Of a stretch of DNA of 64,000 nucleotides, positions 6,486-29,927 are shown in pieces. The position numbers were made by a program, and so were the translations under genes. The notes beneath the pieces were generated by a model. It searched no databases, was not told the origin of the DNA, and saw nothing but the letters and a program-made list of their open reading frames with translations. Where the stretch lies: assembly GCF_003704095.1 (NCBI RefSeq), contig NW_020846901.1, positions 248,001 to 312,000 of the forward strand, written 5' to 3'. This DNA is from Pocillopora damicornis. Lineage: Eukaryota. How positions within the stretch are numbered: the first letter of the stretch is position 1; each line of letters starts with the position of its first letter.

Positions 6486-9400
6486 TTAGTAAACATCCTT
6501 GTAAAGCTTGTGCCATTTTTCGACATGCCTACTTGGAGATTCGATCATTGATTTCCACTGCTCCTGCCCAGACCCAAAGGAATCAAATCCAAGAATAGCC
6601 GTACCCAAACTCCCGCCGCCAGTGTTGATCTCCGAATGATTCACTATCTTGAGCATTACAGTTGTAAGGGATATCTGGTCAGCGGAAATGTTGAAATTAA
6701 ACTTCTCGTTGTACACGGGATTGAGGCTTCGTCTCTTCACGCGCGTGTTGGCCTTAGATAAGCGGACACCGTCACAGTATAGCGCAAGCTTCACGTACGG
6801 GTCTGTAGACAAAGAAACGTAGAAGTTAGGTGGCTCCGTTTTATTGCAAACACGGCAACTCGAAGTTCATGTTGTATGCACCGTTTCTTTGTGATATGAA
6901 TGCAACAGGTGAATTCAATACTTCAAGCACTAAATCATTTTAGTACAGTTAAAAATATGAGAAGCAAAATGCTTATCGACCATTTCTTTATTTTGTTTAT
7001 TTGTTTTGTTGAAGATTAAAGTTTGGTTTAAGGTTGTGTTTAAGGTTGAACATCTTAACGCCATTAAATGAGCCTGCAATAACTCACCTGTGCGGTCTGC
7101 AATTGCCTTTGGTAATCCACGGATCTTGGTGACAGTAACGATAAGTCGACCGCTGATCGGTCGGAAACACAGCGATACACACAGTTCTCCGATGTCAGCC
7201 GCTTCCATCTGACGAATGATGGACAAACGAAAGAAACTATTGTTTAGGCACAGAGTTTTAATTCATAACTGCAGAAAAAAAGGCGAAAAAATTCAACAAA
7301 ATTGGAAGCTATTGGGTGTTATTTTTATATAGCACCAAACTCTCTTCACTAAATTACAAAGAAATGTATGACAGCTAAAAAGGAGAATTACAACTCAGAT
7401 CATGAACGTTAAAGAGTTGGGAGAAAATACATGAAAAAGAGCTCATTTACAAACACAGCTGGTTGTTCGAGGGGGGTTTATCATCCTTTAATAGAAGCAG
7501 GCCGGTGACAAAAGAATCCGGGTATGTTAAAAGTATCCAGTGATTTCTTGGTTTTTTGGGTGATTGTTAGGAACAAACAGGATTTGGGAATGATTCTGAA
7601 GTGAAATTGTTCTATGAAGTAAAGGATTCGACTACTTTGTATGCTTTATAAGTTTGTAAGTTTTTGGGTGTCTCAATCACTTACTTTTACAATTTTCTAT
7701 TTCAGTTAGATCAGGAGGAATACTGCGCGCCTTCGATTTAATTCAAGCGCTAGCCAGCATACAAAACGTGCACGCCATTCTCTTTCTTAAAGAGGTGCTG
7801 AGGTTCCACTCAAAGATTGTAGAAATATTCTCGTACATTTAGTGGGTTTTGAAAATGTCTTAAGGAAAGAAAGATTTTTTCTTAGCATATTCTAGGATTT
7901 TGGTATGTAAGGATTATATAGAGGAAAACTAGGCCGCCCTAGTTTGTCTGTTTAACCTACCCCGAATGGAGGTGGAGGTGATAAGTACAGCCACTTGGTG
8001 ATCGAAAACGAGGGTCTGTTCTCCATCAACTTTAACTCCGACAAAGGAAAAAGTATTTCTCCTATGACATCATCAGCATATCGGTCTTTGAACTTGTCGT
8101 GAAAGTTCACTACTCTGAACTTCAACTCGTATTCTTTGATTCTATCCTTTGAAAAACCTGAAATAACAAAAGTCTCGTTGAAAACGGGATCTGGGGTTCC
8201 TTCGATGATTTTTGTTCTTTGCCAACAGAACTGCTGTGGTAGTAGAGATATCTTGACCAGTGGGTTAATTCCTTCCTTATTATCAGTTATGGGAAGGCCG
8301 ACCGCCTTTATTATGTTTACTTGAAGCTCTGTTTTAGCAACATTGTAGTGAAGGGCAAACCGAACTTTTCCAAGTTTTCCATCCGGGTTATCAGGCGATG
8401 GTGTTTGATCTTCTCCTATGAGACCTATCTCTTTCAAGTTCATCTCATTCGTTTTATTTTCTGGCAAATCCAAGTGCCTCTTTTGCGGTGTGGATGTGGG
8501 ATTCGAATTACATCTCTTTCTCTTCCCAGGACTGTTTTCCTCCCCAGAAAAACCCGAGTCCTTGTCCTGTTTAAAACTGATGTCTTCTCTTACCACCTCT
8601 TCTTCAGTCTTATCCAAGTTATCTTCTAGTGACGCATGCGTACTAGAGTCCGACTCTTGAACATCCGGGGTAAGTAGCGTCACTTTTTCTCGTGACCTGT
8701 GATCTGTCTCGTCTCCAGAGACTGAGCTTTCGTCATTGAATGTGGTCGAATTGCCATTAACAATTTCATTGGAATAGTTACACAGCCGATGGTAGTAATA
8801 CCTTGTAGGAGGACAAGGAAAACTACGATTTTTTGTCTCTTGAACATTTAAAGATACAGTTTTAGGGAAAGAAGAGTCCACTATCTTGTCTCCCATGACA
8901 AGTTGTATCTTCTGCGAGGCTTCTTTTGCGGCATGCGCGCGTGACTTTTCCCCTGTTATCTTTTTGTAGGCGCTGACGCCTAAAACAACTAAAAGGTAGC
9001 CGATAGCAAAGCCTAAGAGGATTGGCAAGACGAGAATGCCAAAGAGACATAATAATCCCGTGTTGTTGGATGCAAAGCGTGTCATAAAATTGGCTGAGTG
9101 TGGTTTACTGCGAGGATCAAAGTCTGAAAGAAAAAAAATATAAATATATAAATAACATGCATGCATTTATGCACCCCTCAGGGAAATTATTGCGTGTAGA
9201 AAATGCAAATTTTTTAGGTGGCGTTGAAAGCCAATTTCCCTCGCACATAAATATTTCGAAAAAAAATGACAAAGCAACTTAAATAGCCGCGACGGAATAA
9301 TTAAATACACCGTTAATTTTATTGGGAATATCGAAATGTGATAATATTTCCAGAAACAATTGCGTATAATCATTGTTAACACCAAATTATAATTGATAAT

Positions 9401-12599: not shown

Positions 12600-15500
12600 T
12601 GGAAATACCGTCAAATGGAAGAACACAGTATGCGTTGAGTAAGTAAAACCAAAACATGCTTTTGTCGTAAACACTGATCCGAAATTGGATAAATTGATTG
12701 TTACGAGCGGTGTTTGGGCTTATGTGTTTATGTACAGCATGGACATTTCGCAGGTCACAGGTGCATGTTTGCAAGCAATTTTTGTCTGTTAAATTTGATA
12801 TTTTTTATAAAGTAAACTTTGCCAGGTAACAACTAAAATCCTTAAGCTTTAGTTTTGCAAGTCTATGCTATAAAACGGAACAAGGATACAGCGATAGGTT
12901 TTCTTGATAGCTCAAGGTACTGACGTTTTAATAACAACCGGCATTAGCAATATTTCAATCTCACGCTCTGACGGTTTTCTCTTAACACTGATAAAGAGCA
13001 CTGCCTGTGTAGACAGAGGAGCAAGGGACATACCTGCAAATAAAAACAAGAGTTCATAGACATTCGATATATCGTATTTTGGACGTCAGAACTTAAAAAA
13101 TATGACTTTTCTTGTGTTCGTGAAAGAGTTTTTTGGCTAGCTACGCCCAGTCCGAAGAGTAGTCATTCCCAAAGGGCGTGAACGTAGTTCATTGCATGGG
13201 ACATCAAGAGAGCATACCATGAACTAATAACTATTAGGCGATATATAACTAAAAAGATCATTTAGTTTTTGCATTGGAATTGAAGCTTCATTTGTGATCG
13301 TTTCTAATCTGGTAAAGAAAAAGGAAAGTTCTTGGAAACAATTTCTTTTCCCGCCTGGCGCGACGGGTGGACTGACAGGTGGCAAAAATCATTATTTGTT
13401 TTAGAGGAGTGTCACCTTAATTTATAACTCTGTTTTTCTATGTTTCTATTTGTGATTTTGTTTTCGTTGGTAAAGAACAAAACCGGAATATATTAGAAAT
13501 GATAAATAAATCTGATGCAAGAAAGTCATCGTTATAAATCTGGTTTCTTCCACTTAGACTCCAGATAGAATGACAAATTTTGTACCAAAAATTGTAACAC
13601 ATAATGCTAGTTACCGACGTGAAGTTTTAAGTATTATGACAGCTTTTACAATAACTCGACATTAATTGTTTTCCTGGAACAATTACAAGGTAGGGGAGCC
13701 TCGTAATTAACGGTCAATCGGATAATTTGAGGGTAACCAATATTTATGAGCTGTTGTGAATTAAGAGATAAGAAATCCTTTGGGAAAATTTTCACAGCAT
13801 TCCTTACTGGTTACCTTCTTCGTATTTTGGGTCTCATGGACAGAACTGAGATGATTCAGGATTCAATGATTTTTAAAAGCCTGCTTCATCTCAAGGCGGG
13901 ACTTATTATTTCAATCTGAATATGCTTTTTTATAAAAAGAGCGGAATAAATTTTAGCCAACCTCTCTACAAAGAGTGAACTTCCATAAAACTTATTTTGC
14001 AGTGTATAATTCTAAATTTTGTTCAGAGGTTTATAAAATAGAAAACAAAAACTATCCTACTGAAATCGATAGATTCTGAATTTTTTCAAGTAACATATCT
14101 ACTTTATTTCAGACCTTTCTGACCAGACCTCTGAGGAAACTGACGTCATACCTCAAGATAACTCAGCTGATATCAGCGCTTTCCTTCTCCCTGCCATTGG
14201 CGCGTTACTTATGCTCATTTTCGGCGGTATACTTTTTTCAAGCGGAACCGTCCCATGCAAAACCAAAAAAATGTCGGAGGATAAGTTTAAAAGAAAATTT
14301 GAACAAAAATATGGGCGACGGACGATTTGTTTTCATAACATACCGGAGAAAATCGCAAAAGAACCGTCCTCTGTGCTGCAGCAAGAAAACAACGACGTTG
14401 TGGATGCTGTAAGGAAAGAATATCAAGATTTACCGCAGTTCCAGCCAGTCAGCGGATTAGTTGGCAACATCGGGGGATTACTTGGGCAGACATGCGTAGT
14501 AAATATATCTAAGGCGGAAGTCAGAGATACAGGTGTAAGTCCAATTCATTTCAACACAAAAGATTGCAAAAAGACTTCGTATCAAGACAGGGATTGCGTG
14601 ATGGAATGTTTTAGCAGAGACGACCATGCACAAAGAAATCCCGCTGCATCCAGCGGAATTGGTACTGATTCTCCGGATAGTTACGAAGTCGATAGTTTAG
14701 AAAAGTATCCGATCAGTGAACATCATTCTTTAAGTTTCCACGAAGGAGAAATAAATGAGATACCCGGCAGGCATAAGACACCTCAGTTTGACTATGGAGT
14801 TTATGGTGGAGGACGAGCAAGTGTGCTCCAGTTAGAAAGTGCTCCTAGCACTTTATGTGTTAAAGGCTGCAATTGTTCCATACATGGGGCAGATGCTGAA
14901 AAAATGAGAACCAGTGCAGAGAAGCCTCGAGTTAACAAAACACAACTTACTTGGGGTGATATTGCACAAAGCTCAAATAAAACTCAGAATCATGGGAGCG
15001 AATGTGACGCATATACAGCGCACAGTGATATGATAAAGCCTCAAACTCCAGGTGCGCAGATATCTGGATCTTTAACGTCAGAGAATATGAGAGAAATTAA
15101 TAAAAGTCCACTGAGACGCATGGATTTGGAAAAATGGCTAAACGATGTGGAAGAGTCCCGCAATGAAGGAGGGAAGATCAGCCCTTCGGCTATTGACTCT
15201 CCTGACGAGGAAATTGGAAGGCCTTGGTGCGCAACTCATGAGAGGGACTGTCAATCGAGCCGGAGAAAAATGCGTGCACCGCTTCAGGAAAGTTTACAGC
15301 TGTTGGCAAAACTGCAGGTAATTTCAGAAGATGATTTGCCTCTGGCTCAGAACTCAGTCCATCGTGGAGGTCGCCTAAGCTGCTTGCAAACGGTAAGGGC
15401 ACCAGGCTCACTGTGTTTGGATCCAGGTAGTTGCAAAGGGCATGGTGAGTTTCAGATGACCTCCAGCCAATCAGATAAGACAAATACGACAACTGCTGAA

Positions 15501-16802
15501 AATAGTTCTGAGTTTCTGAATGACGATCGTCAGCTTGTTACATCAAGAACTGAGCGCCTCGCGAAAGGTGGAAGACAGAGTACTTTAAATCTCCTTAGAG
15601 CGTCAAGTGCGATGTGTATTCATGGACCTTCGTGTAGAGTTCATTGCCAGAAAACGGTAGAAAAGTTTCCCTGCATACCTGAGAAAGGTTTTAAAGCGGC
15701 GTTACACTCTGAACAAACAGAACTAAGAGGTGCCAGCATTTTGGGTGCTGTCCAAAGTGAAGAAGAAGATAGAGCGATCATTGAAACCACTGCAAGACAA
15801 AGTGAATTTGTGAACACGGATATCAGAGAGAATGAACTTCGAGGGGCGAGTATCTTTGGTGATTTCTGCTCTGTGAGAGATATGAACTTGAGAGGAGCGA
15901 GCAGCTTTGCTGAGCAACCTAAAAGAAAGTTTCATAGTGGTCGCAGTTGTGGCGATGAAGCAAACAATTTTCAAATAAACTTGGAAGAAAATAGGGGTGC
16001 AAGTTGCTTTGCACTGATCGATGAAAGTGTAGCGGATACATCAAGCGTGACACTAAGCTTCGCTGTGGAATCTGACACAGACAGTTTTTTTCCCGATAAA
16101 AACTCGAGGCAGAAGAATAAGGTGGTTCTAAGTAACACTCTACATGACAACTTAGAAGTTAAAGATGCAAAGAAATACCAGACTGTGGATGGTAGAATCT
16201 CAACTACTAATGCCTCAGAAAAAAAGGATGTTGGTCTTGTCCAAAGAGAACATTCAAAAAATTTTGATCAGCGAATTTTAAAAGTGGGTAAAGACACTCA
16301 AATAATGTCTACTCTTTTAAATGCACTTCGACGAGATGGTGAAAAGCGCAAAGAGCAGCAAAATATCGACCAAGGATCCAATCATCTTACGAGCGACAAA
16401 GAAGCTTTAGTAGGAAATCTAAAAGTGTCTGTTTTGTACAAGAACGGTAATTCTGTCACCTCTTTGCTTTACGTCTCTATTTTGGGTCTTGAAGTTACTC
16501 TAAACGAAAATGTAATGCCAGAATGCGATGTTTACGTGAAAGTTTGCCTTTTACCAAAATTTTCAACATGGCAGCGTACAAGGACGGTAAACATCACGGA
16601 CAGCTTTGTTTTGAAAGACCATTTTGTCATGTCTGGAGTAAAAGCAATGGATTTAGAAGAAGCTATCCTCAGATTTATGGTTGTGCGTTTGGGAGAGGAC
16701 GACAAACCCTTTGCTCAGGTGGACGTGTCATTAGAGGAACTTAAGTCATGTGATAAATTCAAAAGGACTTATGTGCTGCGTGCGCCTACCGACAACGCAT
16801 AG
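12599..16802 (+). CDS. Synaptotagmin-like protein B (TM + about 700-aa repeat-containing linker + single degenerate C2, about 909 aa)
   Basis: Exon 12599-12638 (MEIPSNGRTQYAL, A|gtaagt, phase 1) and exon 14113-16802 after a tttcag acceptor. TM segment AFLLPAIGALLMLIFGGILF. C-terminal C2: VGNLKVSVLY...VYVKVCLLPKFSTWQRTR...FVMSGV...LRFMVV, similar to the C2A of gene A. Confidence 0.8.
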
Positions 16803-18329
16803 GATGATGGGACTTCTTAAAATGAATGGGAATTAATCGAGAAACTACTCTGTATATGACTAAAGGAAAAGAAAACCCATGATAACTCTCACTTTTAATC
16901 AAAAAGTGGAATACATTTTTTGTACCGGAAAAAGATCGATATTATTGTGACTTTTCTTATATTGGAAAGATATAATTAGATAGATCTCGGTTCGCATGAA
17001 CACTTTGAAAGATTTAACCTCCATTTTTCAAATTTAAAAAAAAAAAACTGAAAATCGTCCCCAATTCTAGTCATCTTGGCGACTTTTCTACCAAAATTTT
17101 CGTCACTTTGAAGCTTGTATTTCCTGGGAACTATTGATTTAAGATTTCCTGCCAATATACGTCTTACTATTTTTAACGACCTAAATAAATCCAATATGTC
17201 TTGACTGACCTACCTCCATTGAAGAAAAAACAGGTGCTTTATTTATGTGTTTCTTGCGTGCCCAACAGAAGAGTGTTTACACTAGATAAAAACCTCCGCT
17301 TTCGGGAAACTTGGAAATAGGAATCTTTCAAACTGTTCTCATAATAGATGGTTAATTAGCTTTGACAAAATTTAAATGCATTGGGTTCATTCGAAAAGAG
17401 ATCGATTAATTACCCCCCTAACATCACCTAAATAAATTTATTTCAGTTCTCTTAATTTGCGCCACAACGAAACCGAAAAAAATTCTCAAGGCTTTCCTAT
17501 TTTCGGCCTTTCAACAAACAAGCAGTTTAGTCCAGTGTAGCTCAAACATTTGCATAATCATAATATCTTTGTTTCCTAGAAGAATGTACCATTCACTCGA
17601 CCCTGTGAAGTGACATAACCTCTATTATCTATTTCTCGCCTTAGAGAGAAAGCGTTCAAAAATCTTATTTCGGCAGATGCTTTGGAATGATAATTGCCAT
17701 TTTGGATGGAATTTTGTTTTCAAAGGTTGAAAATAAAATCAATCAAGGAATTCACTGCAAGACGTCAAAAATCAATGAAAATCAACCCGAAAGATATCAA
17801 ATCAACAAAAAGTGAGTAATGGTAGAGAGATGTTTACATGACATCGACCTTTAGAGCTCTGCATTAATGTATTGTGGTAGAATCTGGAACGCAAGAAGGG
17901 GAGAAAAAACAGATTGGCGGTCCAAAATACATAATTTAACATTGATCGAATAGTGGTTCATTATTCGAAGAGTAATCTAATTCATTTCAGCGTAAATATC
18001 GTTACTTGTGTGACGCAAAGAGAGCTGAGTGGCTTTGCAGTATTTTGCATGACAACAAACCCACGGCCAAATGGAACAAAATGTTACGCACGAGTGAATG
18101 CGGAACTTTGAAAGACGTGTATGATGGACAGATACAAATGCTTTTAATAAGCCTTATTTATATTCACAACTAATTTGCAAACGGTAATCGAACTACTCGA
18201 CCCCGCGAAAAGTCCAAGTAAGCAGAGCCTTCGACACGTTTATGCATTAATAAGTTCCCGTTTGGTTGTGACTCGAGAAAGCAACGTTTTTTACTGCGGA
18301 AAAAGGAAGCATGACTTAAGAACGTTCAA

Positions 18330-19363
18330 ATGACGGTACGTAGACACGGTATAGTTTAAAAGACTTTCAAACTTTGGCGTCCTTTTAAATCGCGGCAAGT
18401 TTTGAAGAATTTCTTATTTGGCTGCCACTCATAATTTTTTTTTTCGGACAGGATCCCAACGTTCTTGGCGTTATTTTGGGGTCAGTTCTTGGTTTTCTGG
18501 CGGGAGCCATCGTAGTCTGTGTTGGATATTTTGTTTATACAAAAAGATCGGGGACTTATAGTCCACTTTCACGGGATGTACGTGCGAAGATCGATTACTA
18601 TTCCGCCTCAAATCCCGATGGCGCATTCCTCGCCGCCCAAACTCGACCAGTTCAAGTCCAACCAAATGTATATACGCTAGCAAAGTCTTCCGCAGAATCT
18701 TACCCGGAAATAACCGAACTAAACGATGGTGATCATCGGAGAATTCGCGTAACGAGGCCTTACGAAGCTGGTGCAATTGCTACCATCCCGGAGGACAGTG
18801 AGGACGTTGAAGACGGGAGCCCGCGAAGTCTTGAGAGAAACGGGTCGACCGGCTCAGACAAGCCAAAACTATCAAAACGAATGAGTTTACCCACCACCCT
18901 TAAATCTGATGGATTATTCAATCCTAACCCAGAAGAATTCTTAAAAAAGAAATTTTCATCAGAGGAGGAGGAATGTCGGCTTGAGTTCTCGTGCTTTTAC
19001 GACACGGCCAGTCGTGAGTTACACATTACCGTAATTCAAGTTGTTGGGATTTCTACGCCAAACGAAAGTTTCTTACGCCCGCCTAGTTGCAGCGTTAAAA
19101 TGCGTATATTACCCGAGATGTTGTCGTGGCAGTGGACACGCAGAATTTCACGTACTTCGAATCCTGCTTTCAACGAAACTTTCATCGTTCCTGGTTTTGT
19201 TCACAACAAATTACGAGAGTGCACTGTACACTTTGTGGTGTTGGATTTTGATCATGTGCAGGACACTGTTTATGTGATTGGGGAAGTAATCATGCCCTTG
19301 TCAGAACTACGAGCTAACAGACTAGAGAAGATTATCAAAAGAGTGAACCCGCTTGCTTTCTAA
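18330..19363 (+). CDS. Synaptotagmin-like protein C (TM + single C2A-like domain, about 305 aa)
   Basis: Main exon 18452-19363 follows a poly-T...cag acceptor in phase 0. The likely first micro-exon is ATGACG|gtacgt at 18330-18335 (tentative). TM segment VLGVILGSVLGFLAGAIVVCVGYFVY. C2: RLEFSCFYD...VKMRILPEMLSWQWTRR...PAFNETFIVPGF...VLDFDH...VIGEV. Confidence 0.82.
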
Positions 19364-22050
19364 GTTTATTGAATAAATTTTTTTGCAATGAATTCTCTGA
19401 CAATAACATGACGATCGGGGCAAAATGGAAATTAAACACAAACAGGAAAAAATTCCTTGTAAATTAAGCCCCTTTATTCATACGCATTTAAGCGAAGCGT
19501 TTGAGGAAAGCTATCGGACTCATTTAAAAATTAAGTTTACAAACGAATCACAGCTGACTTACTAATTTAAAAGAGAGTGACGCATTGTTAAGATATATAT
19601 TTGGAATATTGCGATCTTGACCTAGGTGGTATTTCGTAAATTCGTGAGAGATAGTAACTATTATTTACACGTCATTGTCATTATAATTTTTTCTCGTCAC
19701 CATACGCATCCAACTGAAACGATTTGCCCCTTGTTATTAAGCAGGTTTACCATTTCATCCTCAAATACAGCAAGAAAAATTTTTGACCAGTGTTGGAATT
19801 GTTCGTAATATATTTAACACAATTTGTTTCGTTTTCAATACTGGTTTCTATAATTGTTTAAAAAGAATATCGTTCTAACTTGCATATATTAATTATTGGC
19901 GCTTTTTGTTTATTGGGTGGCAGCAAATAAAGTCGTGTTAAGTAATCTCTGACTTAGTGTGATTTTATGAAACCTTAATCCTGTATTTCATCGCTAATAA
20001 TCCTCCAGGTATGATAATTATGGTATTTTCACAATGAAAATGAAATAAGATGGGAAATCCGTGAAAATTGAGGGAGACATACAATCTTCGACTATTCACT
20101 ATGAGCTGCTAATACAGCGATGTATTTCACTTGTGTTACGTGAGTGGAAACCGGAGTTTTTATGGCGGTTTGTGAGAATCCAGACAGACAACTGATTGAC
20201 CAATTATGATATAGTGTATACTGCTGTGATAAAAAAATCGACCCGAGTTCCATTAAAAAATCCGAGATTCGGTCTCGCTTATCAGTCTAGTTAGACAGTC
20301 CTTCTCTTCTGAGAAAATCTGATATGAACCGCACAGGGTTTAATATTTGTGTGGGGGAATCTGGGGAGAGAACAAATCTACTCTTGGTGCAAGGTTGGGA
20401 CATCATGGAGCAGCCACTAATTGGCGCAAAAAGGCATATAGAGCGACTTTTCAAGGTCAAATTAAACGGTTAAAAAGTTTTGTTTGATATCATTCATTTT
20501 TTCCTTGTTTTGAAACTACTATGGCGATATGTGATTTGTAACAGGTCATCGGGCTGAAACAGACACATATTTGTCCAGAGCCGGCAAGGTCAGCTGTGGT
20601 TTACATAATTCCTCGAGCAATTATAAATAGAAAGTCATTATCAGAAGATGGAGAGCTTAACTGCAATCATGTTTCAAAATATTCAGGTTCAATGGATAAA
20701 TTAATCCATTGCGGAAGAAATCACACAATTGCTCTAAATTGAGTCTATATTTGGCTGCAAAAACAAATCAATCGGTCACGCAGGCACGCAATCATCAAAA
20801 ACCTGCTCAACTCCTATAAGACTTATGTACAAAATAATCATCCCTTGAGTTTAAAGGGGAAACTTTTCATTTATCTATAAACCCGTCAATTACTTAAAAC
20901 TCTACACTGCATCTCCGAAAACATGTCAGATGAAATAGTGAAGGGAAACACACATAGTGATACAAGATGCGAGGATAAGGGGAAAGAGAAGGAATGGCGC
21001 TGAGTAAACACATGAAGAATATATTTGAACCAAACAGAAATTTATATTACTAGAAAATTCACCCCGATAACTCAGCTGTTCCATTAAAATAATTTCCCTT
21101 CTTAAGCTATGCATGACTAACATAGACAGGGAGAGGAGGAAAGTGAACCGGGAGGGCTCAAGAAGCCGCTCATGCAGACATTACTTCATACCCCCACCGA
21201 TCACTAAGATTAGTACCGAGAGAAGCATTTTCCCTCTTATGGAATCAATATGCTGACGAGGAAACATTCGTGACAAGAATATGTTACCTCTTGAGTGGAA
21301 GCTGGGAAGTTTATCCATAATAGATATATGCGCAATCATCCCGCGAGAGCATAAACAAAAGAATTTTGTTTGTTCAAACATTAACGTCACCGGAAAGCTG
21401 TTTGGGTGCTTCGTACATTTTCATTCTTTTCAGTTCCTACGTAGTCCTAAAAGCCCGCGTAACTTCACGATTTCGCCACCATCTCGCGCTAATTTGTGAA
21501 CTCCAAATTAAATTATGTGAAATTTGAGACAGCTGGTATTTCCCAGTATTACCCTGTGTCTTTGACTCACGCAATAATCATAATCTCAACAAAATCAGAA
21601 ATACCCCTATTTTCTCTTGTTTTAAGGGAATATAACTGTCAGTAAAAAAATTAAAAGCTTTTTCATTCGCTATTTCCAAAGGAAGTGAAAATTCGAAAGC
21701 GAAATGTATTCCTTACAAGGGATAATCTCGAGTATGTTCTCACCCGCAGACTTCCGGTTACTCCTTGCGTGACAGAAAGCATTGTGCTTTGAGAGATCCC
21801 ATTGGTCTATCCCAAACCGGAAGCAAGGTAGCTCATAGAACACGTAAAAACGAGAACATAATTTATTTTTGACTTGGTGACTTAGCGCGCGCCAATATTG
21901 CTTTCGAAAATATGACCGACTACAATAATTTCGAGACAAATATACTCACTTCAATCATGAAATATTTCTGTAGGTAAATTCCATGGAGCAGTGCTCGAGT
22001 AAAATTTGGGTTTCGATTCACCAATGGACAGCCGTGTAGAAGTTTCCTAG

Positions 22051-25000
22051 ATGGTTAATCAAGGTAAACTACTTCAATCTAACGTTTTGTTTCCAGTATC
22101 AGTGACAATATATTCGACTGCTTTTAATAGTGTTTTAACCTTTCTGTTTTCCTTCTTTATTGTAGTTGTTTTGGCTGTTGGTTTGGGTTTAGTTGCCGGA
22201 TTGGTTGTGGTCGTTGTTTATTTGCTGATACAGTATTTTCATCAACGTTCTTCAACAAATAATTATAAATACACCCAGCTGACATCTGATCCTACACTTC
22301 GCTCGCGGACAATAATCAACCAGGACATTCCACCATTCTATATTCCCCAGGCCGTCTCTGTTCCACAACAACAACCGGCTATCGGAGAACTTCAACGAAC
22401 TTGTAGTATTTCTAAAGAGGAGTATCGGCATGGCCATGCTCATCTGTCAGCGACAGTTCACAGTGTCAACGTGCGGCGCAAAGCGGAAGATGGAGGAGGC
22501 ATACAGCTAGATGCAATCAACACTGGAACAATCTCGCCTCCGTCCATAACACCCAAATTGCCAAGAACCCCGAGGACACCGCGAAAAATTTCGCACCCAC
22601 AAAAGCAATCCTCGAAAGAAAATCTCTCTATTCCGCAGCAAAGGAAAGTTGCGGTTCACAAGAAAAACCCAGAGATAAACTTGGGAAAACTTGAGTTTTC
22701 CCTATATTACGATCAGTCTTTTCGTTTGCTGCAAATTTACGCAACCCGTGGGATTAAGATAGTGATTCTGGGAAGCGTACATCCACCTGATATACATGTC
22801 GCTGCATCGATAGTTTTAAATGGCAAACAAATTTGGGAACAGAAAACTCGTGTGGTTAAGAAAACGAACGATCCGCAGTTTAATGAAAAATTGGAGGCGT
22901 ACGGAATAACTCAAGGAAAACTTTCAGAGGGTATGTTACGCTTTCAGCTGGTGAATACTCAAACGAACACAATTATCGGAGAAGTGGAGTACATTTTAAA
23001 AGATCTTCCGCCGAACAAGTTAACAACGAAAACTCTTCCCCTGATTCCAGTTGAAATAGATGAAACAGAATGCCCCATCGAGGTATGTGTTTTGAAACTT
23101 CTTGAGCGCAGCTAATTACACAATATTGACTTATATTGCGTGACTATTTAATGTCAGTTTTTTATATCACAGATTTAAAAAAAATTCACAAAACTCAAAA
23201 TTTTTGACGAGTTCGACAAAATCTACAGAAGACCCAAGAAACATTCACTGTTGATCAAGATATCAGAAACAGACGGTAAAAATTAAGTTTATTTAAATGA
23301 ACGGATGCTTATATCATGTAAAATACCAGAAAGTTCCTCATTCCAATCTATTGAAATTTTTCAAAAGATTCCGTCAGTGTCACAGTTTGACGCGATGCTC
23401 TTTTGTTTTGCTCCTCAATTTTGCTGTGTAATTAAAAAAAAAAAAAAAAAAAAACTAATATTGGTTTTTGTAAAAATCTCAGATTTTGGTTTTTTTCTAA
23501 TGAATTGGAAAAATATACTTTAACTATGCTCCGGATCAAAAGAGCCGGAACCCAAACAATCGAGGGAGAAGATGACATTACGTCAGAGAGGCGACAAACT
23601 TGACGCCGCGACGTAGATGATAAATTTTCCTTCTTCGTATAGCTTAGAAACATCTGAGACTTTTCCCCATGTGCCAAAATTAAATAATTCCACACTTCCT
23701 TATTTTTTATTTTTTTTCCTCTCAGTTCTCAGGCAGGGATTCATACTTCTATGTTAAAATTTTTCCACACGGTTCATGATCGATATCGCCGTTATGCTGA
23801 CGCAAACTGGTCGCTAAATTTGGGTTGTTAGGAGTTGATTTAAGCGATATAGGTCTGGAGCACGTTGAGAGACTTGTGCTAATTGCAAAGTTTGTCGACG
23901 GTAGGGATGCTGACGCAATGCATTAAAAAAAATAGAAATTTCATCAACAAAATATTTTACAATGGGGGGGTTGTTCACCAGCGTCTGAATGAAATTTAGG
24001 AAGATATTAGGGATTATATAAAATACACATTTTAAACTCCCCCCCTCCACTCTTGTTAAGTCCTTGCACGAATGCAGCAGCTGTTTTATTCACAGCAGCG
24101 ACAAAAAAAAGAGAACTTAGCAGAAAATTTTTGATACGAGGACAGCAACTGAAAAAGGATAAAATTAATTCTTACGCGCTTGACGCTGATGGTTACGAGC
24201 GACTGTGAAAGGGTCGTCTTAAACTAAATTGGGAGGACCATAAAGGTGGAGAAAGAAGTTTTGTCTTCTGGTTGCGGTCTGAAGAACATTTTCCTTTACG
24301 GAAACCTCATGACCTACAATTGAGCGCTTTTTTGGGCTCGCTTTTATTTCGGGAACATAACTGGGAGAAGCAAAAACCATCGAGTCCAAGCCACTTAGGT
24401 AGCCGCTTTTGACAGTCAAGTGTTCGCTTCCGTTGAGTCTAACAAGCTCACTTTTTACATCGGATTGATAAATGTCTCGGCTGGTTTTTAGTTAATCTCA
24501 TCCGTCAATATTTCAGGCAGAGACGCACTCCGATGTTTTGAGTTAATGATGTCAGGCAGAAACAGATTTCACCATTGCAATCACATCTTAGTTATCGAAA
24601 ACGGACAGCTATACAGCTATAGTCTGTGCATGCGTGGCCATAGTAGAAGGGGAAGCGAAAGAAGAGAATGAGCTTCGCCCTTAAAGCAATTTTGCCCTCT
24701 CCATCCTCTCCCCCCTCTCTACATCACCTTTTCTACGTTGGCCGTGTAGGCATGGAAAGCAACGACTAAGCATTTGTATCGACCCCCCCCCCCCCCCCCC
24801 CCCCCCCCTTTGACAAGAAAACGGCCCCTCAGGCAAAAGTTTAAAGCTAAGTAAACCATGGAGAAACTCGAGAGGGTCGTCCATCATTGACCTTTGCTAT
24901 AACCTTCCCGGCTTATCTTTTTCTGACTTTGTTTGTTTTCAGGAAGAAGTTGAAGATTTATCCTCTGAGCTTGGCGAGCTATCGATTTCTTTGTGTCACA

Positions 25001-25785
25001 ACCCGACGGATCAAAAACTAATGGTGAAGGTAAACTGTGCCAGGGGCTTACAACAGATTACAAAGGACGGGAGACTAAGTGAGTAGCCCTTCCAGATAAC
25101 AACAACAATAACAAAGTGTATAAATAAATAAGAGAAAGAAAGATAATAAAACAAGATAATTTTTTTACAAACTCTCTCTACCATAACGAATGATTAATAA
25201 CTTCTTAGATTATTTTCATGGATGATATATCGGAGTTTTCTCATATGTTGAAGCACAAAGTATCAAGAAAAATGCTCGATTAAGACACTCAATTGTACAT
25301 TAAATGAAAATGGTTGAATTTTTTAGATACCTTATTTAATTGCAGTGAAATATCTTTGTGCAGTTCGATCGACATGTCCTTTCGGCTCGCCAAACACTGT
25401 TCAAAAACTCTTGGAAAAGGTTTGGTAATAGCGTACAGTTAACGTCGACTGTCGGTATCTTTTTTCAGATCCATTTGTGAAACTAGATCTCACCTTCTGT
25501 GGACGGAAGCTTAGCACTCGGACGACAAAAACTGCTCATAACACCAAAACACCAAACTTCAGCGAAATGTATGTGTTCGATGTGGACTCAGACAAACTGC
25601 CTCAGATCACGCTGTTCTTCAAGGTTAAGCATCGTGGTAGAGTGCGTGACGTTCCCTTGGGCACGGTGCATCTTGGGTATTGCGTGAATGTCGAGAGCGA
25701 ATACAAACACTGGGAACAAGCCATGGAAAAGCCTCACCTTGAAATAGAGCAATGGCACACTCTCCAAGAGTATTTTATTGAATGA
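22051..25785 (+). CDS. Synaptotagmin-like protein D (TM + C2A + C2B, about 460 aa), probably Ca2+-independent
   Basis: Exons 22051-22063 (MVNQ, tentative), 22166-23082, 24943-25078 and 25469-25785; phases 1, 0, 1. TM segment VVLAVGLGLVAGLVVVVVYLLIQYF. C2A: LGKLEFSLYYD...DPQFNE. C2B: LGELSISLCHNP...NPFVKL...PNFSEMYVFDV...HWEQAMEKPHLEIEQWHTL. Confidence 0.87.
24783..24807. repeat. Poly-C tract
   Basis: About 25 consecutive C in intron 2 of synaptotagmin-like gene D. Confidence 0.9.
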
Positions 25786-26989: not shown

Positions 26990-29927
26990 CTACTGGTGAT
27001 AAACTGATGTTATGGTATTGTCTTTCCCCGCAGTCTCATCGCCTTCAGGTCCTTGATAGAACTTCTCTTTTCCAAGGATTCGCAAGCCAATGGGACGCAA
27101 GACTTGTTTAAGGTACCCATGAACGTTCAAGCCTCTTGCTCCTAGCGTTTGAGGGGCCATGTTGTAAAAGCTCTTCAGTGGGGACATGAGAGAATCAGCC
27201 AAATCATGATCCACAATGTCAGCGTAACACGATACCCAAACACCGTCCACGATCATGGTCCCTTCTTGGGTAACTGGTGCAAAGGCACCAAATCTTTCAG
27301 CCGTCGAGACTGACATAACCTTCCTTGCAATAGGAGCATGGTACGTTGGAACGTGAACGAGGATGTAGTCACCTGGTTTGATTTGGGATGCATGCACCGA
27401 GCGAAAGGTATTCCCTCCCAACTTAGCACTCAGAGGTCGGAACTCGAACACAAGATGAGCCTCACTGAGTGTGAGCTTGATGTAGTCTTCAGTAGTGATG
27501 GTGTAATAATGACCTGTGTAGGGAAGAAAATTTGAGCTGTATCTGTATCTTAAATGTTTTGTCCTTGAGAGTCTTTTCAAATACAAGTCTCCCAGGACTT
27601 TTATTAGTACCAAAATAATATTGGTTCTGTAGCAAAAGAGAAAAAAAAAACAGAATGCAATTGGTGATTAAATCTGAAATATGAGAATTTGGAAGCCAAT
27701 CAGATTACAAGGATAACCAGTCATTTCCAAGTAAATGTAATAACGGCAAACACCCTGTCAAGGAGAACTTAAAAATAAATAAAAAGTTTAGGAGACAAAT
27801 ACAAAGATGTAGGAATAAATTATTCAAGTGTACCACCTACCCTTGTGGTCAGGCGCTTGATCCAAGAAGGTAACCACATGACTAAAGACAACTTCGCCAC
27901 CCTTAGAAAAGGTCTTGACTGTGTCTCCAATGGCGAGCTCACTGATGGGAATCTTCTTCCCAGATCTGACCTCTACTTTAGCTTTCGAAGGGAAGCATGT
28001 TCCCCCGCCTGATTGCTTAACGTTGACGTCGATTACACAGCCATCTGATACAAAGGGGAAAGATTCATTAGCTAATTTACTTAGGTGTTTGACAAGCTAT
28101 AAGCCTTGAACCGTAATTTGCTTGATGAGGAAATTTCGACGGAATCAACTTAGATGGACGGGTTAGGGGACAGACTTTTCCTTAAGCTTTGTTCACTGAT
28201 ATGGGTAGCTATTTAAATGATTAGAATTGATACCAAATATGTTTTCGATAGCAGGGGTCGAAACCACCAATACTTAAAGAACATTTCTGCGTCAGCTTTG
28301 CTCCCGATATTTTTTTCCCAAACTGTAAATGCCCATCTAATTATCTCGTACCCAGACCACGTACGGCCAACCGAGGCAAGCTTTCAAATTGGAGGGCTCC
28401 TCGGCTAGGGTCAGGTCAGCAAGGATAGTCTACATGATAAAATCATTCAGCTCAGGCACTCTAATTGATTAAATCCCTAAACCCAAATGTTACTCCGACG
28501 TGCATCTTCCACTTACCTGTGGGAGCAGGCCACAGCTGAGCAGATATGAAATTTTTGTGTTTTAGGACACCTTTTGCTTGATGAAATCCATTCCCGTCCC
28601 ATAACAGAACGCTACAATCTTTGCTGTCATCTCCATCTTTGATGTCAACGAACATTATTCCCACTTGCCCTCGGAAAACTGCGGTATTGTTAGATACAAT
28701 AGGCTTACCAAATTCTTCCTTGAGGTACTCTAACAGAGGTGCTCGTTCATAGAAATAATGGTAGCCTTTCAGACCTTCCTTGCTTCCGTTCCTTTCTGTT
28801 GTGACGTTTAACACGGCGCTCATGCGCAATATGCATGTGGCGTTTGGATAGAATTTGAGCTCACGACTGTCTTCTGGGAAAAGGTACTCTTCAACATTCA
28901 AGCGGTTGTAAATTCCTCCATAATTTTTATCGCCAAGATACATTTTTTGAAGGATGGAGAAAGATGGCAGCATTTCTGTAGATGCAATGAAAGTGTTAAT
29001 GTCTTGAGACCGTAAAACTTTACACTTCTTACACACATATGTTTACATATTCATCGTGTAATAGAATTCACTTTGCTGCGGCCATAACCTCGGTTCGAAA
29101 TAAAGAGAGCACAGCGGGGCTCCTGGTCAAAGAACTTAAAAATTTTCCCGCGCAGATCTCCTCATTTCAAAGGGATGTGGGATTTAATTAGCGTTCGTTG
29201 AAAGAAATGAAACAGGCACTTCTCCGAAAAAAACCGATTAAGTTTCCATCGGCCGGCTGCTTTTTTCGCATCTAATACGTCTCATTGATTTCAGTAAACG
29301 ACGGCAGATTGGTATACGGAACCAGGCAGTGTATATTCATACAAAGTATTGGTATCACGAGACAATGAACATAAAAACTTGTCTTTATATCATGGTGCGG
29401 ATACCGAATTACGAGATCGCCAGAAAGTCCTCCCGTACCATTAGCCCTCAATGAAAATGGAACCACCACGAAAGTAACTAAATTGCGCATAAAGAAAAAT
29501 GAAAAAAAGCAATGCAGTAAGGTACAGTTAAAAGCATGTGAAAAACGTTTCCTGAGCAAAAGACTGTAGATGCAGCACGGAAGAGCAAAAATTCTAGTTA
29601 GCTTCAAAACTTAAGTTGGTGTATCGTATAAGGCTTCTGAGCCTAACTTATTTCTCATGAATAGTAGGTGGTGTCCTTATTTTAAAAACTAAACCCTCGA
29701 GGTCACAGTGGTGAATGGCAGGATTACAAGATCCCACGAAAGGCTTAATCGGGCTTAGTGATGTTTACATAAACCCCGCTGTGTATTACTAACTATGCGG
29801 CTGCCAACATCCACACTTAAGGGAGCCGATCAAACCGCCACAAATAGAGCATACAAGGACACTAATACTTACTGGTAAAGGCCACCGGAATATTAAGCAC
29901 AAGGAGTATCGCCACCATCACCTTCAT
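26990..29927 (-). CDS. Secreted Tae4-like (amidase-fold) domain fused to a Hedgehog-type Hint/Hog autoprocessing domain, 413 aa
   Basis: Exons 29927-29873 (signal peptide MKVMVAILLVLNIPVAFT), 28975-28517, 28044-27841 and 27513-26990. All introns are GT-AG in phase 1; 1242 nt open in total. Hint: GGGT|CFPSKAKV...ISELAIGDTV...VVTFLD...LTLSEAHLVF...ASQIKPGDYI...GAFAPVTQEGTMIVDGVWVSCYA, then an SRR-like HDLADSLMSPLK...VHGY. N-domain: LPSF...NATCILRMSAVLN...YFY...LLEYLKEEFGKP...FRGQVGIMFV...SVLLWDG...QLW. Confidence 0.9.

Follow-up and report, generated by a model that had tools for sequence, protein, structure and literature searches.

A spliced gene joins a Tae4-like domain to a Hog domain

We analyzed a 64,000-nucleotide stretch of the Pocillopora damicornis genome (contig NW_020846901.1, positions 248,001 to 312,000, referred to here as the window) and identified a four-exon gene on its minus strand, at window positions 29927-26990, that encodes a 413-residue precursor. 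The protein consists of a hydrophobic leader, a Tae4-like domain, a linker, a Hint domain, and a tail. A sequence-only reading of this DNA had called attention to a Tae4-like domain at 28517..28975 that retains the catalytic Cys and has a Ser at the catalytic His position. The interval proved to be exactly one exon. It does not stand alone but belongs to a Tae4-Hog fusion. Neither the Hog autoprocessing domain joined to it nor the membership of the gene in the Hint3/'Y hog' family had been recognized in that reading. The parts of the gene, with the residues discussed below, are as follows.

29873..29927, minus strand: coding part of exon 1; likely signal peptide (residues 1-18) with a hydrophobic N-terminus; phase-1 donor; joint 28975/29873 seen in 4/4 RNA runs
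28517..28975, minus strand: exon 2; Tae4/Dae4-fold domain, residues 19-171; symmetric phase 1-1, 459 nt, AG/GT ends
28833..28835, minus strand: Cys66 (TGC), counterpart of Cys44, the nucleophile of StTae4; N-x-T sequon just before it, at Asn63
28614..28616, minus strand: Cys139, at the position of the Gly found just before the catalytic His in canonical Tae4; probably disulfide-bonded to Cys66
28611..28613, minus strand: Ser140 (AGC), in the catalytic-His slot (StTae4 His126)
28578..28583, minus strand: His150-Gln151, a conserved pair in place of the CxxxC/triad-Asp loop; likely non-catalytic
27841..28044, minus strand: exon 3; linker with Cys174, predicted cleavage site, and first part of Hint (Pfam Hint 50.2 bits; cut-off 29.7)
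27997-27995, minus strand: predicted cleavage site Thr187/Cys188, mapped on Drosophila Hedgehog (Hh, 6TD6) via the ortholog P0003
27862-27860, minus strand: Asp233 in the Hint domain, exon 3, mapped in the same way
26990..27513, minus strand: exon 4; remaining Hint (Ser256-x-x-His259, SCYA Cys335), sterol-recognition-like region, and stop (Pfam Hint 87.8 bits)

The exon structure was confirmed with RNA from 4 of 23 listed runs, one run from each of four studies. All three GT-AG introns were removed in 4/4 runs, and individual contigs from two of the four spanned all four exons. A stand-alone Tae4 gene was ruled out: the open reading frame (ORF) enters an intron, and the exon is spliced to the Hint exons. 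In RNA contigs from three of the four runs, 25-29 bases are inserted at the stop codon (26992), so that the extreme C-terminus varies between strains or species. Full-length proteins with a Tae4-like domain and Hint were found independently (Oculina P0001 and P0003, P0049, P0061), and four intron-less loci have the same order (L007, L009, L011, and L012). Genomic locus L010 shares the exon layout of the window gene, and Actinostola P0014 is a partial Tae4-like plus Hint protein.

The gene belongs to a known family. Burglin 2008 described two Hog proteins ('Y hog'), Nematostella Nv 120428 and Acropora DY579185, with a novel N-domain that contains at least three conserved Cys (PMC2362128). Nv 120428 corresponds to NvHint3 (PMC3531958). 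By-eye comparison of the two sequences as printed found the N-domain motifs of the window protein and the Hog signature in both, and the window gene is likely the ortholog of Nematostella Hint3. The closest named relative is from Oculina (60%), and the gene is frequently auto-named 'hedgehog-like'.

The signal peptide candidate, recognized by inspection of the sequence, is a hydrophobic 18-mer on a separate exon. The N-terminus of the window protein recurs in P0003, P0049, and P0061, and signal-peptide cleavage is predicted for NvHint3 in Burglin's table (PMC2362128). It is very probable that the precursor is secreted. By splice consensus, checked with RNA for the window gene, the Hog exons of all four Hog genes in the genome begin in phase 1. 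Together with the phase 1-1 Tae4 exon, these starts fit exon shuffling while falling short of proof, and the Tae4-like domain likely joined the Hog exon by this route.

Exon 2 encodes a Tae4-type fold under purifying selection

Several comparisons support the assignment of exon 2 to the Tae4 family made in the sequence-only reading. The exon product matched StTae4 (PDB 4J30) by phmmer (E 0.005), with Cys66 over Cys44 and Ser140 over His126 of the Cys44-His126-Asp137 triad (PMC3759425). A profile built from 18 relatives matched Tae4 at E 2.7e-15. The AlphaFold2 (AF2) model of the domain has a predicted local distance difference test (pLDDT) score of 88, and Foldseek at E<=0.001 returned 11 chains, exclusively Tae4/Ssp1 (best E 4e-8, TM 0.77). 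In the VIA comparison, the top match had Z 16.1 and a root-mean-square deviation of 2.5 across 140 aligned residues; nine Tae4/Ssp1 chains scored Z 15-16, and the next best score was 4.9. A Pfam scan of the exon at E<=1 gave Tae4 (PF14113) as the sole match and no Amidase_2 (PGRP) domain. As modeled, the exon 2 product adopts a Tae4-type NlpC/P60 fold.

We considered whether exon 2 might be a decaying pseudogene, a sequencing error, or a chance likeness to Tae4. The exon by itself scores 18 bits on PF14113, under the 27-bit gathering cut-off, which would fit a chance match; orthologs score 19.4, 26.2, and 27.1 bits, so that one of the three lies above the cut-off. Against this stand an open, spliced gene conserved from corals to Nematostella and a fold match at Z 16. 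The ratio of nonsynonymous to synonymous substitution (dN/dS) is also well below 1. It was 0.28-0.44 for the exon in the 9 of 21 pairs with unsaturated dS (0.19-0.47), which stem from three lineages and not nine; the values of 0.11-0.20 between the window and the others rest on saturated dS and were not relied on. The Tae4-like exon is under purifying selection. Decay and chance likeness are refuted by the profile match, the fold match, splicing, and dN/dS, and we assign this group of explanations a negligible probability.

The catalytic His and Asp of the Tae4-like domain are lost

The codons for Cys66 (28835-28833, TGC) and Ser140 (28613-28611, AGC) read as the sequence-only reading had stated, in the context CSVLLWDGNGFHQ. 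Its judgement that the Ser is unlikely to be a sequencing error is also borne out. The motif around Ser140 is identical in all 15 listed members of the window's 90% cluster (63 in total) and is likewise present in the Oculina proteins, and none of the 40 listed RNA-contig variants (of 59) hits the Cys66 or Ser140 codon.

Conservation across orthologs, suggested as a check, gave a divided answer, in that Cys66 and Cys139 are fixed and Ser140 is not. Among the 24 sequences with Cys139 in an alignment of 38, the His slot holds Ser in 14, Asn in three, Gly, Asp, and Arg in two each, and His in one. Thus, 23 of these 24 lack a base at this position, and we rejected Ser140 as a selected replacement because the slot varies among six residues. 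Canonical Tae4 domains combine the Cys with a Gly-His pair and a CxxxC loop in six of six cases (four bacterial genes and two repeats of P0023), whereas none of 13 Hog-type sequences has the catalytic His or the loop. The triad Asp137 position is occupied by Gln151 or a gap, and the CxxxC loop is missing in both alignments of this region. A drifting His slot and the loss of the triad Asp and CxxxC loop support the non-catalytic reading first proposed from the sequence, and it is quite probable that the released domain has no amidase activity.

A rewired dyad, in which His150 of the GFHQ motif stands in for the lost His, had been put forward as an alternative. His150 is present in 36 of 38 sequences, and in one alignment of the loop it falls on Ser136, next to the triad Asp and within a loop that borders the cleft. 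In the other it occupies a position of aromatic packing (F/Y/L in 6/6 canonical domains), so that both leave His150 outside the catalytic slot. Moreover, His150 is retained in 11 of 12 sequences without the nucleophile Cys, and in NvHint3, where both Cys are present, Gly occupies the His slot and Phe stands at the position of His150. The proposal does not survive these comparisons well, and we consider a rewired dyad highly improbable.

A conserved Cys pair and sequon, probably at the cleft

The sequence-only reading had also suggested that the Cys next to the His slot forms a redox lock with the nucleophile. The part that stands is plausibility: Cys66 and Cys139 are invariant in 20/20 sequences covering both sites while position 140 drifts (P0015, misaligned at these sites, is left out of this set). 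The pairing itself is inferred from topology. In the Tae4 topology (PMC3852654), Cys139 would lie where the His strand meets the cleft, whereas Cys174 would come after the last strand, at the opposite end, making Cys66-Cys139 the likelier pair. A disulfide between them is probable, and Cys66 has likely been kept as half of a structural disulfide, its role as nucleophile being over.

The surroundings of the pair are conserved as well. An N-x-T sequon lies directly ahead of Cys66 in 19 of 21 sequences, and a glycan on it would sit at the cleft. The 20 sequences share 34 invariant positions, including Tyr31, Gly33, Gly38, Gly39, Arg69, His150, and Gln151. The link between helices alpha1 and alpha2 and the segment after the His strand form the substrate-cleft walls in Ssp1 (PMC3852654); Tyr31, Gly33, Gly38, and Gly39 fall in this link, and invariant residues map to the cleft-wall loops. 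Much of the invariant pattern is also found in mollusc and annelid relatives that lack both the dyad and Hog.

These residues could also belong to a redox-gated or residual enzyme. Cys139 would then cap Cys66 reversibly, and the reduced thiol would work without His, or the Cys-Cys-His arrangement of locus L014, taken as ancestral, would be that of an active, switchable amidase. The invariance of Cys66 fits such an enzyme. So does L014, which encodes Cys66, Cys139, and His140 together and branches deep within the Hog-type group (87/91), although this placement is unsettled and the contig ends before any Hog part. Among the relatives, L014 is the leading candidate for an enzyme that is active or gated by redox state. 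The near absence of a base in the His slot, the loss of the triad Asp, and the tolerance of Arg, Gly, and Asp in the slot argue against the idea, and we regard it as improbable. L014 also has an extra intron within the Tae4 domain (L014:1210-1377 and 2299-2592).

The Hog domain retains the residues for autoprocessing

Mapping through P0003 placed Cys188, Asp233, Ser256, His259, and Cys335 at Drosophila Hedgehog positions C258, D303, T326, H329, and C400, respectively. D303 is required for sterol transfer in Hedgehog, and D303H functions too (PMC9163320). The first helix of the sterol-recognition region (motifs K and L) aligns to Hh, and the region is 70-74% identical among orthologs; its HWY motif reads HGY in the window protein. 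From these residues, self-cleavage by the Hog domain appears quite likely, and sterol transfer somewhat likely. A Pfam scan of the window protein and orthologs gave no match to the Hedge (HH_signal) N-domain.

A proposed model for a surface-tethered Tae4 fold

In the model we propose, the precursor would enter the secretory path, and the Hog domain would cut before Cys188 (Thr187/Cys188) and attach a sterol, probably cholesterol, to Thr187. Once released, the Tae4 fold, devoid of catalytic activity and probably closed by a disulfide, would stay at the cell surface and serve as a binding module. We hold at about even strength that the disarmed, Hog-fused domain is released and tethered as a binding module, most likely for peptidoglycan fragments. 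The assignment of peptidoglycan fragments as the ligand is itself tentative.

A number of observations weigh against parts of this model. In the Hog domain, the TxxH motif has Ser in place of Thr, and the sterol-activating Asp site is variable, with Asp in three, Glu in five, and His in one of nine full-length sequences and Gln in NvHint3. With this variation, cleavage remains likely, as does sterol transfer in the window protein, but transfer is less certain for the family as a whole. In the full-length AF2 model, the Hog half has pLDDT <50 and is unusable. Both Cys are present in 21 of 33 sequences covering both sites, neither in 12, and a single one in none; this pattern reflects one clade split (100/99), not many events, and because canonical enzymes carry Cys66 alone, the co-occurrence amounts to weak covariation. 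Cys174, the third conserved Cys, is a possible alternative disulfide partner, all three Cys of the N-domain being present in 9/9 full-length sequences. Given the Cys-Cys-His arrangement of L014, some members of the clade may have a functional dyad. Finally, a disulfide plus a glycan could shut the cleft to peptidoglycan.

A host-directed ligand would require no change in processing. The dead Tae4 fold, having lost recognition of peptidoglycan, would then bind a host receptor and, tethered by its lipid in the manner of Hedgehog, act in signaling or adhesion. The Hedgehog-type architecture of the protein and the likely disulfide and sequon at the cleft fit this explanation. Wnt activation in embryos raises NvHint3 expression (PMC3531958), a response that fits a developmental ligand equally well, and none of the cGAMP-induced rows searched in the supplement of PMC8713801 could be tied to NvHint3. 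On the other side, the cleft-lining residues are common to the Hog-less mollusc and annelid relatives, which suggests an older shared ligand. We consider the host-receptor explanation somewhat unlikely. Nematostella gene 5501378, a Hog-type gene of the antibacterial response annotated 'desert hedgehog protein B', is cGAMP-induced (log2 3.3, polyps) and NF-kB-dependent (PMC8713801, supplement 3); it could not be tied to Hint3 and was not used as support.

If the model of a tethered peptidoglycan-binding module is extended to its origin, anthozoans would have taken up a bacterial type VI domain, sealed it with a disulfide, and fused it to Hog. The result would be a sterol-anchored coral peptidoglycan sensor, and a cell-wall hydrolase fold would have come to serve as the ligand-bearing part of a Hog protein for a second time, independently. 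This fuller scenario is speculative and, taken as a whole, rather unlikely. Were it true, microbe detection would be tied to Hedgehog-type processing.

Relatives and neighboring genes

Degenerate animal sequences part from bacterial and canonical ones, including P0023, in two trees (93/85 and 99/96). The trees hold 3-4 bacterial sequences on long branches, and eight sequences were dropped and four added between them. With so few long-branched bacterial sequences, we claim no donor or direction of transfer.

Some relatives show other forms of degeneration or domain context. P0017 from Dreissena polymorpha is a mirror case in which the His is kept, the nucleophile Cys is replaced by Ser, and Hog is absent; its cluster has 57 members, mostly molluscs, with Tae4. 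P0083 and P0084 from Lamellibrachia satsuma (about 1000 aa) have a Tae4 domain without Cys and His, and without Hog, that lies between two N-terminal repeats and a weak stanniocalcin-like part. We take the repeats to resemble the N-terminal domain of PGLYRP2. In P0023 (448 aa), by comparison, three canonical Tae4 domains follow one another in tandem, with acidic linkers in between.

Searching the coral genome with the exon as query found the window copy alone. Canonical Dae4 absence is not established by the PF14113 search of the same genome, which gave no match but also missed the exon itself and left the controls silent, nor by the search with P0023, which gave no match. No relative turned up in two scans of bacterial genome contigs, and P0017 had no match among plasmids.

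The genome holds three other Hog genes, namely two true hedgehogs located elsewhere and one with a WSC-like front end. The latter (L004:2015-2545 and L004:1494-2174, minus strand) has a WSC-like N-domain that is under the Pfam cut-off (WSC, E 2e-5). Within the window, the upstream neighbor (33154-32432 and 32101-31562, minus strand) is papain-type peptidase-like, with a weak Peptidase_C10 match (E 0.023). It has Ser where the genome paralog L021 has Cys in a G-C-G-P motif, and its His motif is kept; it is possibly a second pseudo-enzyme next door. Synaptotagmin-like genes form a cluster at 6489-9166 (minus strand) and 14094-25782 (plus strand), with Pfam C2 in four ORFs.

Comparison with known systems

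We compared the window protein to other Hint3 proteins. Hint3 (JGI 120428, ABX89901.1) and DY579185 share with it a likely signal peptide, a three-Cys N-domain of ~165 residues, and Hog, and DY579185 agrees with the P0011-type sequences of our tree. NvHint3 differs at three positions given above, where Gly fills the His slot, Phe replaces His150, and Gln takes the place of the Hog Asp. Burglin 2008 denied similarity of the N-domain outside Cnidaria and favored divergence over domain acquisition (PMC2362128). Our analysis, in contrast, assigns the domain to the Tae4 fold and places relatives of it in molluscs, annelids, and bacteria, an identity that argues for acquisition. A cnidarian hedgehog-related gene whose N-terminus has counted as novel since 2008 would thereby have that part identified. 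A literature search for the Hint3 N-domain as a degenerate Tae4 found none, though Chou 2015 and Matus 2008 might mention it, and automatic databases may already display the Tae4 and Hint pair, as one ortholog scores above the Pfam cut-offs for Tae4 and Hint alike. Both domains and the gene family were already known; what appears to be new is the N-domain as a degenerate Tae4. Because of the 'hedgehog-like' automatic names, coral expression studies may miscount the gene as Hedgehog.

The type VI amidase effectors Tae4/Ssp1 (PF14113; 4J30, 4HFF, 4JUR, 4BI3) share with exon 2 the fold, the Cys at the helix start, the RMS motif, and the GI and LW strands. His126, Asp137, and the Cys135-Cys139 loop are absent from the window protein, and the Gly before the His has become Cys. 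Unlike the effectors, the gene is eukaryotic and spliced, and its product is probably secreted, Hog-fused, and without an immunity partner gene.

Animal dae genes are bacterial in origin according to the summary of Chou 2015 given by Margolis 2021, which counted two tae4 homologs in Nematostella and showed one to be active (PMC8713801). Probes for both genes, translated by eye, encode canonical-type motifs. Hint3 was thus seemingly uncounted, and Nematostella apparently has a third homolog in the Hog-fused gene. NvDae4 and the window protein are both anthozoan Tae4 homologs with a secretion signal, a likely one in the window protein, but nvDae4 is an active peptidoglycan hydrolase (PMC8713801) and the window domain is likely inactive. 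A degenerate branch of animal Tae4 homologs, in corals, anemones, a mussel, and a tubeworm, is added in this way beside the active Dae4 enzymes. Since Nematostella has both the ortholog and an established Dae4 assay, function is directly testable there.

Hedgehog and other Hog proteins share with the window protein Hint with its catalytic residues and, probably, secretion of the N-domain; a sterol-recognition-like tail is a possible further likeness. The Hedge domain, which has a cell-wall-peptidase-like fold, is missing from the window protein, and a Tae4 fold takes the N-terminal position. RipD (Rv1566c), a non-catalytic peptidoglycan-binding NlpC/P60 domain that has lost both Cys and His, and the non-catalytic PGRPs, which have a zinc-amidase fold unlike Tae4, provide precedents for a cell-wall hydrolase fold turned binder. 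Neither is fused to Hog, and with the PGRPs the analogy is one of function only.

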